Shown here: positions 1 through 20,233 of the stretch, piece after piece
Layout of the letters: every line of letters begins with the position of its first letter
Position numbering within the stretch: the stretch's first letter is position 1
Sequence record: MW749001.1
Length of the DNA stretch: 64,000 bases
Reading direction: 5' to 3' (one strand)
Source: Escherichia phage vB_EcoM_Kelasse
Translations under genes and position numbers: made by a program
Notes under the pieces: generated by a model
The model's input: the letters and a program-made list of their open reading frames with translations, nothing else
What the model was told of the DNA's origin: nothing
Database searches by the model: none

Positions 1-1267
1 TTTTCCAATCTTTACCTTCTTCGGTCATTTTTTGGATTTCATCCATAACCCACCAACCGCACCAGATGTAAGCTGAAGTGCGATGTGGAAGAGGATGAAC
101 ATAAGGCAATTCACCTTCTGGTTCTGGAGCAACTTTATCAGTTACCTGAACTTGACCTTCTGCTGTGATAGTTTTGCTATCATAATCAGTAGCAGTAACA
201 GTTGCAGTAACTTCAATAGTTTGACTTCCAATAGATGATGTATCAACAGTGTATACATTAGTTGACCCTTCTACTGGAGAAGAATCTTTCTTCCATGAAT
301 ATTCGATTTGTGCTTCTTCTGGAGCATCCGTAACATTAGCAGTAAATGTAGCCGAAGCATCTTGCTGAACGTTAATAGAAGGAGGAGTCAATGTAACCCG
401 TGGATTCATTGTTTTCTTATTAACAGTCAATGATACTTCATTAGAAGTAACTTCCTTTTCATTGTAATTTTCAGCAGTTACTTGGGCTACGCATTTAATT
501 CTTTTAACCCCACTTGTAGTTGGAGTGTAATTGAACGTAGCATTAGTTTCTCCACCAACTTGTGAATCATCTACATACCACTGATACGTAGCAGATGCTC
601 CTAGCGGCTGCGAAGCTAAGGCAGCAGTAAATTGAACTGGGGTTCCAATTACTCCTGCTGGAGGACTATCAGGAGTTACTGCCAAAGTAGTCGTCTGCGT
701 CTTTTTATTAACAGTCAGTGATACTTCATTAGAAGTAACGCTTAGTGTATCATAATCTGCCGCAGTTACTTGAGCTACACACTTGATTTTTTTAACTCCG
801 CTTGTGTCAGGAGTGTAATTGAATGTAGCGTCAGTTGCTTCGTCTACAGGAGAACCGTCAACGTGCCATTGATACGTAGCGTTTGCACCTGATGGCTGTG
901 AAGCTAAGGCAGCGGTAAATTCAATTGGAGTTCCAATCACTCCAGCATCAGGGCTACCAGGAGTTACAGCTAAAGTAGTTGTTTGTGTCTTATTTTGAAC
1001 TGTGATAGTTGTACTAATTTCAGCTGTTTCAGGTTCAGATTCTGCAACTTGATTGGTTGCAACTACTTTAATAGTCTTTTGACCGGCAGGTCCTTTTAGT
1101 ACATAACTAAAAGTTGCTGACGTTTCTTCCTGTGGAGCGTCGTCTACAGTCCAAGCATATGTAATAGGTCCATCTCCAGTTTGACCACTGGGTGTAGCAG
1201 TAAACTGCTGAGTCTGATCTATAACTCCAGTAGGTGTTTTAGGAGTTATATCAACTGTAAAAGTCAT
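1..1267 (-). CDS. hoc: Hoc, outer capsid decoration protein; 3' end runs off the window start; tandem Ig-like domains
   Basis: Minus-strand ORF with ATG at 1267..1265 (MTFTVDI...), open to position 1; not in ORF track because truncated; repeated SLTVNKK domain ends; lies next to inh. Confidence 0.75.
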   Translation of the reverse strand, partial: MTFTVDITPKTPTGVIDQTQQFTATPSGQTGDGPITYAWTVDDAPQEETSATFSYVLKGPAGQKTIKVVATNQVAESEPETAEISTTITVQNKTQTTTLAVTPGSPDAGVIGTPIEFTAALASQPSGANATYQWHVDGSPVDEATDATFNYTPDTSGVKKIKCVAQVTAADYDTLSVTSNEVSLTVNKKTQTTTLAVTPDSPPAGVIGTPVQFTAALASQPLGASATYQWYVDDSQVGGETNATFNYTPTTSGVKRIKCVAQVTAENYNEKEVTSNEVSLTVNKKTMNPRVTLTPPSINVQQDASATFTANVTDAPEEAQIEYSWKKDSSPVEGSTNVYTVDTSSIGSQTIEVTATVTATDYDSKTITAEGQVQVTDKVAPEPEGELPYVHPLPHRTSAYIWCGWWVMDEIQKMTEEGKDWK

Positions 1268-1276
1268 AAGTTATCC

Positions 1277-1957
1277 TTATTTTAATGTTACGAAAGAAGA
1301 ATTGCGTGTTTCACGAATTAAAACTGATCCGTCACGGTTAATGTAATAAATTAAGCTAAATAAAGTTTGGTGTGCTGACGCATGCTCAAAACTAGTTGGG
1401 TGAGATTTCCAATCCGGAGTTTCAGCAATCCACTGGTAAATCCACCAAGGAACGGTGCAGAATCCTGGATTTTTTCCAATCAGCTGAAGATTCGGACTAA
1501 AGTTTTCCGGAAGAGTAAATACAGACAGCTTTTCAGATTCAATAATCTCAGCTACAGCCTGCTCGAATTTTTCTTCAACAAAAGGAGTATCTTCAATCAA
1601 AACATCGGTATTTTCAGGAATTTTATCCGTTTCTACTACTTCAATTTTAATGTCAGATTTAACCGGAGAATCAATCAGAAGTGCTGCCTCTGGATTGACT
1701 TCTTCATCGTCATATTTTAACCCCTCTGCAGCATCAGCAGCATCAATTAAGTCTTTAATAGATAACCCATCAGTCTCTGGCATAGGTTCACTAGCGAGCT
1801 TCTGGAGGGCTTCTTCAATATCAACAACGATATTATCAAAAGATTTATTCTTTTTGACCTTTATACCAAACTGCTCAGCATATTCAGCTAATTTAGCTTT
1901 AGCTTCTTTGTTATCATCAAGAGCCTTCAGCTCTGCAATATAATCTTTATCTATCAT
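1277..1957 (-). CDS. inh: Inh, inhibitor of prohead protease
   Basis: 226-aa ORF between hoc and uvsW, matching T4 map position and size. Confidence 0.6.
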   Translation of the reverse strand: MIDKDYIAELKALDDNKEAKAKLAEYAEQFGIKVKKNKSFDNIVVDIEEALQKLASEPMPETDGLSIKDLIDAADAAEGLKYDDEEVNPEAALLIDSPVKSDIKIEVVETDKIPENTDVLIEDTPFVEEKFEQAVAEIIESEKLSVFTLPENFSPNLQLIGKNPGFCTVPWWIYQWIAETPDWKSHPTSFEHASAHQTLFSLIYYINRDGSVLIRETRNSSFVTLK

Positions 1958-2007: not shown

Positions 2008-3519
2008 ATGACTGACATTAAAGTACATTTTTATGATTTTAGTCACGTGAGAATTGATTGTGAAGAAAGTACATTTCATGAACTCCGTGATTTCTTTAGC
2101 TTTGAAGCTGATGGGTATCGTTTTAATCCGAAGTACAGATATGGCCACTGGGATGGACGAATCCGTCTTTTAGATTATAATCGCCTTCTTCCATTCGGCT
2201 TGGTCGGGCAAATTAAAAAGTTCTGTGATAACTTTGGCTATAAAGCCTGGATTGACCCGCAAATTAACGAAAAAGAAGAATTATCAAGAAAAGATTTTGA
2301 TGAATGGCTTTCTAAATTAGAAATCTATTCAGGAAATAAAAGAATTGAACCGCACTGGTATCAAAAAGATGCAGTGTTCGAAGGATTAGTTAATCGTCGT
2401 AGAATTCTTAATCTTCCAACATCTGCAGGTAAATCGTTAATTCAAGCTCTGCTTGCTCGGTATTATTTGGAAAATTATGAAGGTAAAATTCTTATCATTG
2501 TTCCAACAACTGCTCTGACAACTCAGATGGCTGATGACTTCGTTGACTATCGTTTATTCAGTCATGCAATGATAAAGAAAATCGGCGGTGGAGCATCAAA
2601 AGATGATAAATATAAAAATGATGCACCAGTCGTTGTTGGTACATGGCAAACTGTAGTAAAACAACCGAAAGAATGGTTCTCACAGTTTGGAATGATGATG
2701 AATGATGAATGCCATCTTGCTACAGGAAAAAGTATTTCATCTATCATATCAGGTTTAAATAACTGCATGTTTAAATTTGGTCTATCAGGTTCATTACGTG
2801 ACGGCAAAGCCAATATCATGCAGTATGTTGGAATGTTTGGTGAAATATTTAAGCCAGTAACGACCTCTAAATTAATGGAAGATGGACAAGTAACTGAGTT
2901 AAAAATTAATAGTATTTTTCTTCGCTATCCCGATGAGTTCACTACTAAATTAAAGGGAAAAACTTACCAAGAAGAAATAAAAATTATTACTGGGCTCAGT
3001 AAAAGAAATAAATGGATCGCTAAATTAGCTATTAAGCTTGCACAAAAAGATGAAAACGCTTTTGTCATGTTTAAACACGTATCGCACGGTAAAGCTATTT
3101 TCGATTTAATTAAAAATGAATACGATAAAGTTTATTACGTATCAGGGGAAGTTGATACCGAAACCCGCAATATAATGAAAACCTTAGCTGAAAATGGTAA
3201 AGGAATAATTATAGTAGCGAGTTATGGTGTATTTTCTACTGGTATTTCAGTTAAAAATCTGCATCATGTTGTTTTAGCGCACGGCGTTAAATCAAAAATC
3301 ATTGTATTACAAACAATCGGTCGTGTATTACGTAAGCATGGTTCTAAGACAATAGCAACAGTCTGGGACCTCATCGATGATTGTGGTGTTAAGCCAAAAT
3401 CTGCTAATACGAAAAAGAAATACGTTCATTTGAACTATCTTTTAAAACACGGCATTGATCGTATTCAGCGCTACGCAGATGAAAAATTTAATTACGTAAT
3501 GAAAACAGTTAATTTATAA
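2008..3519 (+). CDS. uvsW: UvsW, recombination/repair DNA-RNA helicase
   Basis: 503-aa ORF; Walker A PTSAGKS and DECH box visible; N-terminus matches remembered T4 UvsW. Confidence 0.85.
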   Translation: MTDIKVHFYDFSHVRIDCEESTFHELRDFFSFEADGYRFNPKYRYGHWDGRIRLLDYNRLLPFGLVGQIKKFCDNFGYKAWIDPQINEKEELSRKDFDEWLSKLEIYSGNKRIEPHWYQKDAVFEGLVNRRRILNLPTSAGKSLIQALLARYYLENYEGKILIIVPTTALTTQMADDFVDYRLFSHAMIKKIGGGASKDDKYKNDAPVVVGTWQTVVKQPKEWFSQFGMMMNDECHLATGKSISSIISGLNNCMFKFGLSGSLRDGKANIMQYVGMFGEIFKPVTTSKLMEDGQVTELKINSIFLRYPDEFTTKLKGKTYQEEIKIITGLSKRNKWIAKLAIKLAQKDENAFVMFKHVSHGKAIFDLIKNEYDKVYYVSGEVDTETRNIMKTLAENGKGIIIVASYGVFSTGISVKNLHHVVLAHGVKSKIIVLQTIGRVLRKHGSKTIATVWDLIDDCGVKPKSANTKKKYVHLNYLLKHGIDRIQRYADEKFNYVMKTVNL

Positions 3520-18546: not shown

Positions 18547-19385
18547 TAGAATGCTCCTTGGAAAATATTATCACCACTAGTAGGTCTATTATACAAATAC
18601 TCTATGCCACCAGGTTTAATATAGTTCCATGTCTGAAACGGATGTGTCTGATATGGATGATATAGATGATTATAAGGATTAAATCCAGGAGTTCTCCAGG
18701 TAGTGTTCCAAGGAAAAGAATCGTTTTTGATCATCTTCTCAATTACATCTTTTATAAATTTTTCACTATCAAAACTTTCTTTATTTTCCTTCGATGGAAA
18801 AAGCTTATTCTCTACATCATTCCATGTATAAACTCGCTGTGCAGTTTTTGGAATACTGTCACGCTCTCCTCGAGCCATCCAATAAACTGGAACATTTAAT
18901 ATTTCACTCGCATGATCGCAGTGGTGAGCGAGATCGTCAATATAACAAATTACGTTATATTTCTCTTTTGCCTTTTTGAACAACTCTTCTTTTGAAGAAT
19001 CATGACCACACATCAATATTTCTGAGAAGGCACCAGGAAAAAGAGCATTCAAATTAAATTGACGATTCAGCAAAGCATCAATAGAATCACCCAATGCTGT
19101 AACAGCTACAAAATTATAATCTTCTTTTAATTTGTTAATTACACACAGGGCATCTTTATATGGAGACAAGTAACGAATAAAATCTGAACGATTGTATTTT
19201 TCAATTAACTTGACGCCAAGTTCTTCATCACAATTAAAGAGTTTACCAGGAGAAATAAATTTCTCATCTTGGATCATTTTTAAAATATGTTCTAACGGAA
19301 GATTATATTTCTGAGCAAAATAAGGAAGGCCTGATTGCCAGCTTAAACATACTCCATCAATATCAGTCAAAATAGTAGGCTTCAT
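18546..19385 (-). CDS. 30.2: HAD-like hydrolase domain protein
   Basis: 279-aa ORF; N-terminal ILTDIDGV resembles HAD motif I. Confidence 0.55.
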   Translation of the reverse strand: MKPTILTDIDGVCLSWQSGLPYFAQKYNLPLEHILKMIQDEKFISPGKLFNCDEELGVKLIEKYNRSDFIRYLSPYKDALCVINKLKEDYNFVAVTALGDSIDALLNRQFNLNALFPGAFSEILMCGHDSSKEELFKKAKEKYNVICYIDDLAHHCDHASEILNVPVYWMARGERDSIPKTAQRVYTWNDVENKLFPSKENKESFDSEKFIKDVIEKMIKNDSFPWNTTWRTPGFNPYNHLYHPYQTHPFQTWNYIKPGGIEYLYNRPTSGDNIFQGAF

Positions 19386-19846
19386 AGAGAGTCTCTTAAT
19401 AGGTTTAACACATCAATAAATTCAGCTTCGGTTAGTATTGTATCATCTTTTGTTAGACCACTAGCCATGCTGTGCTTCAAAACTTTTCCTTTTGAGGCTT
19501 GTAAGGCATCACGAAACCCCTTGTTTTGAATCGCTGCTTCAAAATATGCATTTGTATACAACTCTTTCCACGCTGGGGAGTATCTTGAAAATGGAACTCC
19601 CAGCCAGAAGAGGGTCCCACGGTCCTGAGCTCTTGCATAAGACCTTCCAGCTTGTTGGGCGGCAAGCCCGGATAACCCAAATATACGACGTTGTTGTTCA
19701 ACATTTTTCACCTTGCACCCTTGGAGGAATCCTTCAAGACCTCCAAATTGAATACCATCCATAACGAAAGGCCATTTGGCGAAATTACTTAATGCACATG
19801 ATGGCCACCTAAAATTGCTTCTAATCTCTAACTCAGACATTTTCAA
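19382..19846 (-). CDS. 30.3: NADAR (YbiA/DUF1768)-like protein
   Basis: 154-aa ORF; LSNFAKWPF..DG....E.F.Q..K pattern resembles the YbiA family. Confidence 0.5.
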   Translation of the reverse strand: MKMSELEIRSNFRWPSCALSNFAKWPFVMDGIQFGGLEGFLQGCKVKNVEQQRRIFGLSGLAAQQAGRSYARAQDRGTLFWLGVPFSRYSPAWKELYTNAYFEAAIQNKGFRDALQASKGKVLKHSMASGLTKDDTILTEAEFIDVLNLLRDSL

Positions 19847-20039
19847 TGCTTATAATTTCAACATCAGCCCAATGACCATAGCAAGGAAGACGAAATTCAA
19901 CTGGCCAGTTAGGGTCCTTTTCTAATATAATAGACTTAACTTGTGGTTCTTCATGTTCATCTGTATACGGATTTTTATCTGTTACTTTATATGTGACCTT
20001 AATGTACTGAATTCCAAAAATCTTATTAATTATATTCAT
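19833..20039 (-). CDS. Hypothetical protein
   Basis: 68-aa ORF in the 30.x block. Confidence 0.45.
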   Translation of the reverse strand: MNIINKIFGIQYIKVTYKVTDKNPYTDEHEEPQVKSIILEKDPNWPVEFRLPCYGHWADVEIISIENV

Positions 20040-20233
20040 ACTAATTCCTTTAATCCATAGATAGGAGATAATTCATCACCCATACGAAGGTCTTCATTTC
20101 CATCTACCCAGGAAACAATATAAGCATCTTTTACTTGAACATCTCCCAATTTAAATGCAGGTAAAACCTTAGAAATTAATCCAGGTATACCAACTCCCTT
20201 TAATTCAACAGTTTGACCTAAAAAGAATTTCAT
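20036..20233 (-). CDS. Hypothetical protein
   Basis: 65-aa ORF in the 30.x block. Confidence 0.45.
   Translation of the reverse strand: MKFFLGQTVELKGVGIPGLISKVLPAFKLGDVQVKDAYIVSWVDGNEDLRMGDELSPIYGLKELV

Follow-up and report, generated by a model that had tools for sequence, protein, structure and literature searches.

Hoc is the basis of the bacteriophage T4 vaccine display platform and a model protein for the adherence of phages to mucus, and to our knowledge nearly all work of this kind has used the T4 form, with three immunoglobulin-like (Ig-like) domains. In T4, the C-terminal domain of Hoc anchors the protein at the center of the capsid hexamer and the string of Ig-like domains extends outward (PMC10385173); the capsid contacts involve Y293, H295, R300, W309 and W310, as well as the ESRNG loop E355-G359 (Fokine et al. 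2023, PMC10385173). In a T4-like phage, MUC2/fucose binding has been assigned to domain 1 (PMC11150434), and binding to E. coli surfaces has been reported for domains 2 and 3 (cited in PMC10385173). Homologs of Hoc possess from one to ten Ig-like domains, and T4-like phages vary in Hoc domain number (PMC10385173, PMC11150434): the protein of RB49 exhibits ~22% identity to T4 Hoc, and that of Serratia phage Muldoon comprises 10 Ig-like domains (PMC10385173).

For one Tequatrovirus hoc gene, a duplicated domain is already on record. The GenBank entry for hoc of phage RB30 (AY101183.1) contains a repeat_region (367-944) with the note that an 'intragenic repeat led to appearance of additional immunoglobulin-like domain', and delimits Ig domains at 312-599 and 600-887. 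Our search of the literature for an explicit account of RB30 hoc, or of a Tequatrovirus Hoc with four Ig domains, returned general statements only.

The sequence analyzed here (hereafter the window) is a stretch of 64,000 nucleotides from Escherichia phage vB_EcoM_Kelasse (MW749001.1). The hoc gene runs off the start of the window, leaving the last ~50 of 472 codons outside; two near-identical full-length proteins of 472 aa, P0009 and Hoc of phage ESh31, were therefore used for reference. The assignment of the gene to hoc, made in the initial annotation from the sequence alone, is corroborated by database searches, which gave matches to PHROG 1149 'Hoc-like head decoration' (E-value 9.2e-118) and, with phmmer, to T4 Hoc in PDB (5VF3, 8T1X and others; E-value 2.2e-224). 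Analysis of the genomic neighborhood revealed hoc directly downstream of inh on the same strand, with uvsW beyond, which matches the order in T4, Bas39, ESh31 and RB69 (the conserved block used for synteny was rnlB-24.2-24.3-hoc-inh-uvsW, its 24.3 side falling outside the window). The capsid-contact residues Y, H, R and WW are present in the encoded LPYVHPLPHRTSAYIWCGWWVMDE, and the ESRNG loop, which is outside the window, is found in P0009 and ESh31. On the opposite (+) strand over 1-1267 we searched for a second gene and found only ORFs of 40-51 aa. The coordinates of the features are collected in Table 1. Among database records, Hoc genes are often annotated just as 'PKD domain protein' or 'capsid and scaffold protein'.

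Table 1. Features of the hoc region, in coordinates of the window
Feature	Position	Strand	Remarks
hoc CDS, 5' part	1..1267	-	ATG 1265-1267; 422 codons in window, no stop
Ig-like domain 1 (D1), aa 1-93	989..1267	-	boundaries from repeat phase and AlphaFold2 strands
D2a, first copy of Ig-like domain 2, aa 94-189	701..988	-	A-type; pLDDT ~87-96
D2b, second copy of Ig-like domain 2, aa 190-285	413..700	-	B-type; pLDDT ~90-96
Ig-like domain 3 (D3), aa 286-378	134..412	-	Pfam Ig_3, I-set aa 289-373; AlphaFold2 strands 290-376
C-terminal part in window	2..133	-	near-identical to T4 Hoc 283-326; has T4 capsid-contact residues
21-nt block, 3' part of D2a, unit nt 250-270	719..739	-	identical to 431-451
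21-nt block, 3' part of D2b	431..451	-	match of 719-739
Shine-Dalgarno-like AAGGA	1274..1278	-	6 nt upstream of hoc ATG; overlaps inh stop (1277-1279)
inh	1277-1957	-	ORF
uvsW	2008-3519	+	ORF

Tandem Repeats Finder detected one tandem array (417-991; period 288, 2.0 copies, 77% matches, score 698), and a repeat search returned two pairs of segments with an offset of 288 nt (465-715 vs 753-1003, 76% identity; 411-451 vs 699-739, 93% identity). The initial annotation had described adjacent in-frame units of 288 bp at 418..705 and 706..993 with an identity of 75 to 80 percent; for units bounded in this way we obtained 76.7%, within the claimed range. The 106 other adjacent pairs of 288-nt blocks from the same window exhibit a mean of 28% and a maximum of 35%, hence the identity of the repeat is far above chance. 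The repeat is encoded on the minus strand, which the initial annotation left unspecified, and is in frame inside a single ORF. Bounded in the phase of the domains, the units D2a and D2b comprise 96 aa each, with 76.4% nucleotide and 78% protein identity, and both encode an Ig-like domain with the same C-terminal sequence, VTSNEVSLTVNKK, in agreement with the common ending noticed before. The near-identity of the unit ends, also claimed before, holds for the protein, where the first 10 and the last 14 residues are identical, but at the DNA level it is mainly one-sided: one end corresponds to the 41-nt block of 93% identity, and at the other (5') end the 10 codons contain five synonymous differences. 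We considered recent gene conversion at the unit ends and rejected it, since with these five differences the likeness of the 5' ends is explained by protein constraint; only the 3' block, which includes the longest exact identity between D2a and D2b (21 nt), looks like a candidate substrate for recombination.

The pairwise alignment to T4 Hoc (376 aa) is split, with query residues 1-128 followed by T4 residues 93-376 on query residues 189-472, which indicates that T4 lacks exactly one 96-aa unit. D3 aligns with T4 Hoc 190-282, D2b is the unit closest to the single D2 of T4 (85.8% nucleotide identity), and D1 exhibits 40-44% identity to the D2 units. Among Pfam families, PKD is matched by D2b (aa 195-267; 39.5 bits, cut-off 23.5) and Ig_2 is just above its threshold (27.9, cut-off 27); the best stretches for Ig_2 and BiPBP_C are in D2a. 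The AlphaFold2 model of P0009 (472 aa) comprises four all-beta domains of the beta-sandwich type with pLDDT mostly >90, in which D2a and D2b share the strand pattern and are both confidently predicted, and a C-terminal domain of low confidence (pLDDT 40-66). Foldseek reported strings of four Ig domains as the best matches in PDB (e.g. Dscam and ICAM-5 D1-D4) and also recovered RB49 Hoc (3SHS); the whole-chain TM-scores were low (0.16-0.24) owing to differing inter-domain angles, and we take these matches only as a sign of an Ig-fold string. All four Ig domains are acidic (pI 4.1-4.8), which fits the proposed dispersion role of Hoc. [quoted passage not shown]

If the four-domain layout is read as a notable departure from T4, however, this view does not survive comparison with other phages. 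The units of RB30 and of the window occupy the same protein coordinates (94-189 and 190-285) and are orthologous in order, with 87.8% identity between the first units and 88.9% between the second ones, against 0.757-0.781 for the cross pairs. Among the best 120 homologs, Hoc proteins of 376 aa with one unit are the most frequent (n=77), followed by proteins of 472 aa with two units (n=29) and of 568-570 aa with three units (n=8), with the exception of one 472-aa protein in which the unit pattern used for the search detected a single unit. In two evenly spaced sets of 60 megablast rows, scored by record span and number of aligned pieces, 21 of 54 and 25 of 59 informative Tequatrovirus records showed the two-unit span as a single unbroken alignment, i.e. 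~40%. The counts of records with at least 80% of the query covered (572 and 334) were set aside as over-counts, because the two pieces of single-unit genomes get joined in them. T4 belongs to the one-unit class, and its three-Ig form is one state of a polymorphism of one to three copies and not an ancestral reference. The two-copy D2 is an ordinary feature that was already known, both as sequence and as an annotated repeat, and four Ig-like domains occur also in RB69.

The divergence between D2a and D2b is considerable (dS ~0.95, dN ~0.15, dN/dS ~0.16), with synonymous sites saturated. Judged by these rates, the two units are old paralogs under purifying selection and not a fresh duplicate. 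A search for positive selection in this single pair found no dN > dS; in the most variable third of the unit dN is 0.20 and dS is saturated.

To classify the units we used a classifier trained on the same data set as was counted, and with it 29 of 38 first-position units were assigned the pattern AAA and 32 of 46 later units the pattern BBB. In two- and three-unit arrays alike, A-type units almost always come first and B-type (and C-like type) units later, and within arrays the '...LSV' C-terminal motifs are restricted to the first position; this grouping by position extends over the 120 homologs. Units nearly identical to those of the window are found elsewhere as sole units, with protein identity of 99-100% to D2a and of 98-99% to D2b. 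Most single-unit alleles are chimeras of A-to-B polarity, with an A-type N-terminal and a B-type C-terminal part; among the chimeras, this polarity was found in 34 and B-to-A in 5 (counted among 90%-identity cluster representatives from the best 120 matches, which are related sequences and not independent events). Such a bias is predicted by deletion from A-B arrays and is not what alleles mixed in register would produce; we regard it as suggestive support for an origin of the chimeric units by deletion. The unit of T4 has the reversed polarity (BBA), which implies that in-register recombination between alleles also contributes.

One recombination junction could be mapped. In the single-unit locus L002 (protein P0087, 379 aa; Logan assembly SRR12395678), the flanks match the window at 99.87% (2252 nt upstream of hoc) and 100% (412 nt downstream of the array). 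The only unit of L002 corresponds to nt 1-270 of D2a and then agrees with D2b at each of the three remaining diagnostic positions (271, 285 and 288), so that the switch from D2a to D2b comes immediately after the 21-nt block. Most simply, unequal homologous crossover within an array like that of the window would have removed 288 bp to give L002. L002 comes from a short-read assembly, and Logan assemblies use k = 31; as the longest exact repeat (21 nt) is shorter than this, collapse of the repeat is unlikely. In the three-unit locus L003, the differences from the window are confined to the ends of units, where they match the neighboring unit; this pattern indicates exchange tracts and reads equally well as loss or as gain of a unit. 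Besides the missing unit, L002 contains at 3001-3288 a 9-nt in-frame insertion in a loop of D1 (SEPETPETAEIS vs SEPETAEIS), a second, small length change of the repeat type.

We consider it highly probable that hoc of the window is a two-unit D2 allele, composed of old paralogs, in a gene whose D2 copy number shifts by unequal homologous recombination. The D2 of Tequatrovirus Hoc is a 288-bp (96-codon) cassette, found in one, two or three tandem copies in proteins of 376, 472 or 568 aa, respectively; the C-terminal domain would attach, as a monomer, at the center of the gp23 hexamer and the Ig string of variable length would project from it. Unequal homologous recombination at the conserved unit ends would add or remove whole domains in frame, with the paired 21-nt blocks (Table 1) as the putative crossover site for loss or gain of a unit. 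Most single-unit alleles would be deletion derivatives of arrays, and many three-Ig Hocs may thus descend from two-unit or longer arrays. We speculate further, giving the idea somewhat less than an even chance, that the D2 cassette behaves as a domain-level variable-number tandem repeat, in which an old A-B(-C) array has been repeatedly shortened and sometimes lengthened through unequal crossover at short conserved blocks, that most three-Ig Hocs are deletion derivatives, and that fiber length and loop repertoire are thereby rapidly switchable, as a trait selected for adhesion or for escape from antibodies. A search of the literature for an account of D2 array dynamics at the population level found none, though the repeat itself is annotated in GenBank.

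As to the consequences for the virion, an additional Ig domain is expected to make the fiber ~45 Å (roughly a quarter) longer than the 180-Å fiber of T4. The extra unit should move domain 1 further out and would add another D2 surface whose loops differ. It is plausible that the capsid surface is altered in this way in its reach, its antigenicity or its adhesion; the effect of domain number on reach and avidity suggested in the initial annotation is plausible as well.

An alternative, in our opinion a rather unlikely one, is a length polymorphism without functional effect: the extra domain would fold and be tolerated but would be invisible to selection, and its copy number would drift by recombination. 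It agrees with the dispensability of Hoc in the laboratory (PMC10385173), with the mapping of MUC2 binding to domain 1 and not to domain 2 (PMC11150434), and with the coexistence of one-, two- and three-unit forms on near-identical backgrounds. However, the low dN/dS reveals purifying selection on both units over a deep divergence, and such constraint would be unexpected for a dispensable spacer that costs 288 bp in a headful-packaged genome; moreover, the variable columns, found around unit positions 45-54 and 77-83, are for the most part, but not exclusively, in loops of the predicted structure.

Another scenario, which we regard as improbable, inverts the relationship between arrays and single units: A and B would be alternative alleles of a single D2, joined, possibly several times, by out-of-register recombination during co-infection. 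T-even phages recombine very frequently, sole A units do exist (e.g. P0087, P0103 and P0097) and so do sole B units (e.g. P0113 and P0068), and the short homology that is shared by the domain boundaries (NK/TQTTT vs NKK/TMNP, the slash marking the boundary) would permit rare illegitimate joining. On the other hand, the strong positional specificity, with A-type units first and B-type units later, fits few origins followed by spread, the polarity of the chimeras is that expected if single units derive from arrays, and the sole junction mapped, that of L002, is best read as a deletion from an array like that of the window.

A recent duplication specific to this lineage, by which a T4-like three-Ig hoc doubled its domain 2 and the phage became unusual, is what the textbook reference T4 with its one unit and a perfectly in-frame repeat with conserved ends would call to mind; it is very improbable in the face of the dS between the units, the A-then-B order orthologous in RB30 (~88%), the frequency of the two-unit form among the sampled genomes, and the near-identical D2a and D2b units that serve as the sole unit in other phages. 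Wrong expansion of the repeat during assembly, for which tandem repeats are the classic site, has practically no probability, given that the copies differ at 24% of positions and hence are not one sequence read twice, and that the same structure is present in hundreds of independently sequenced genomes (with an intact ORF here, an identical two-unit sequence in ESh31, a near-identical one in Bas39, and a Sanger-era gene record, AY101183.1).

Several of the related records exhibit peculiarities of their own. In Bas39 (FriedrichMiescher, MZ501066.1; locus L001) hoc is annotated in two parts: at nt 756 of the gene (~512 in the window) an extra G in a run of G shifts the frame in D2b relative to the window; the gene could be truly inactivated by this mutation, or the homopolymer could have been misread in sequencing. 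In the two-unit Hoc of Escherichia phage BYEP02 (P0038, 439 aa), unrelated residues replace the capsid-binding domain after ...HRTSAYI; the change has the appearance of a frameshift, with loss of binding to the capsid as the expected result, or else of a sequencing error. The 32-kb record MG010123.1, 'Staphylococcus phage SAJK-IND', contains at 18837-20136 a two-unit T4-type hoc with inh, 93.5% identical to the window, and is probably mislabeled or contaminated.

On the other side of inh, the gap between inh and uvsW in the window is only 50 bp (1958-2007). A putative homing endonuclease gene, presumably segD in the case of T4, is situated between inh and uvsW in T4, Bas39 and ESh31 and is absent from the window; L002, L003 and L004 are also without it, though it is Bas39 and ESh31 that have the most similar hoc. 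The gap contains, on the + strand at 1971-1978, the T4 late-promoter consensus TATAAATA, ~30 nt ahead of the start codon of uvsW (2008).

Two further arrangements were found among Hocs of close relatives. In phage AV112 (Mosigvirus, OR352942.1; locus L006, 1349-2200) Hoc has 283 aa and two Ig-like domains, with D1 and one D2 joined straight onto the capsid-binding domain and D3 missing, and BYEP01 (OR757453.1) exhibits the same short span; with AV112 included, the number of Ig-like domains spans 2 to 5 among close T-even relatives. P0075 (567 aa, 24 member sequences) begins with D1 and one D2 of the Tequatrovirus type, continues with three RB69-like Ig domains and ends with the common C-terminal domain, a hybrid composition that suggests recombination between hoc genes of the two genera.

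The context of the window is thus a population of T4-type phages of which ~40% in our samples have a four-Ig Hoc and some a five-Ig Hoc, and in which recombination appears to remove units cleanly. This context is relevant to phage-therapy strains, to the way in which adhesion and immunogenicity of Hoc are read, and to annotation. It is not a new kind of system; the repeat and its consequence have long been in a public entry and the variable number of Ig domains in the literature; what is modestly new is the description of D2 as a cassette array of one to three copies at the population level, together with a mapped recombination junction.

Among the described Hocs, that of RB30 (AAM52483.1, 472 aa) has the same 288-bp intragenic repeat at the same position and falls into the same length class; it differs from the window by ~10% sequence divergence over the gene, with no structural difference. 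[quoted passage not shown] The three-unit Tequatrovirus Hocs (568-570 aa; UGKSEcP1, UGKSEcP2 and the metagenomic P0001) are built of the same cassette array and possess five Ig-like domains, P0001 being equivalent to D1-D2a-D2b of the window with a third unit inserted before D3. Hoc of RB69 (Mosigvirus, 471 aa, AY303349) has four Ig-like domains and the same C-terminal domain, and includes two D2-like domains in succession, with SLTVNKK at the end of the first; unlike in the window, however, these two are much less alike than D2a and D2b, and the Ig domains of RB69 are far more diverged, such that only 22% of the 1300-nt query was aligned by megablast. The Hocs of RB49 (3SHS) and of Serratia phage Muldoon resemble that of the window in the general plan of an Ig string of variable domain number on a conserved capsid anchor, but their sequences are distant and none of their domains is a copy of the D2 cassette. 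Beyond phages, bacterial surface adhesins possess tandem arrays of Ig-like domains that change copy number by recombination and thereby alter the length of the fiber. By analogy, whole-domain, in-frame changes of copy number in hoc would likewise alter the length of a surface fiber; the repeats of the adhesins are often near-identical DNA, whereas the hoc units are 24% diverged and exchange between them appears to be confined to short conserved blocks.
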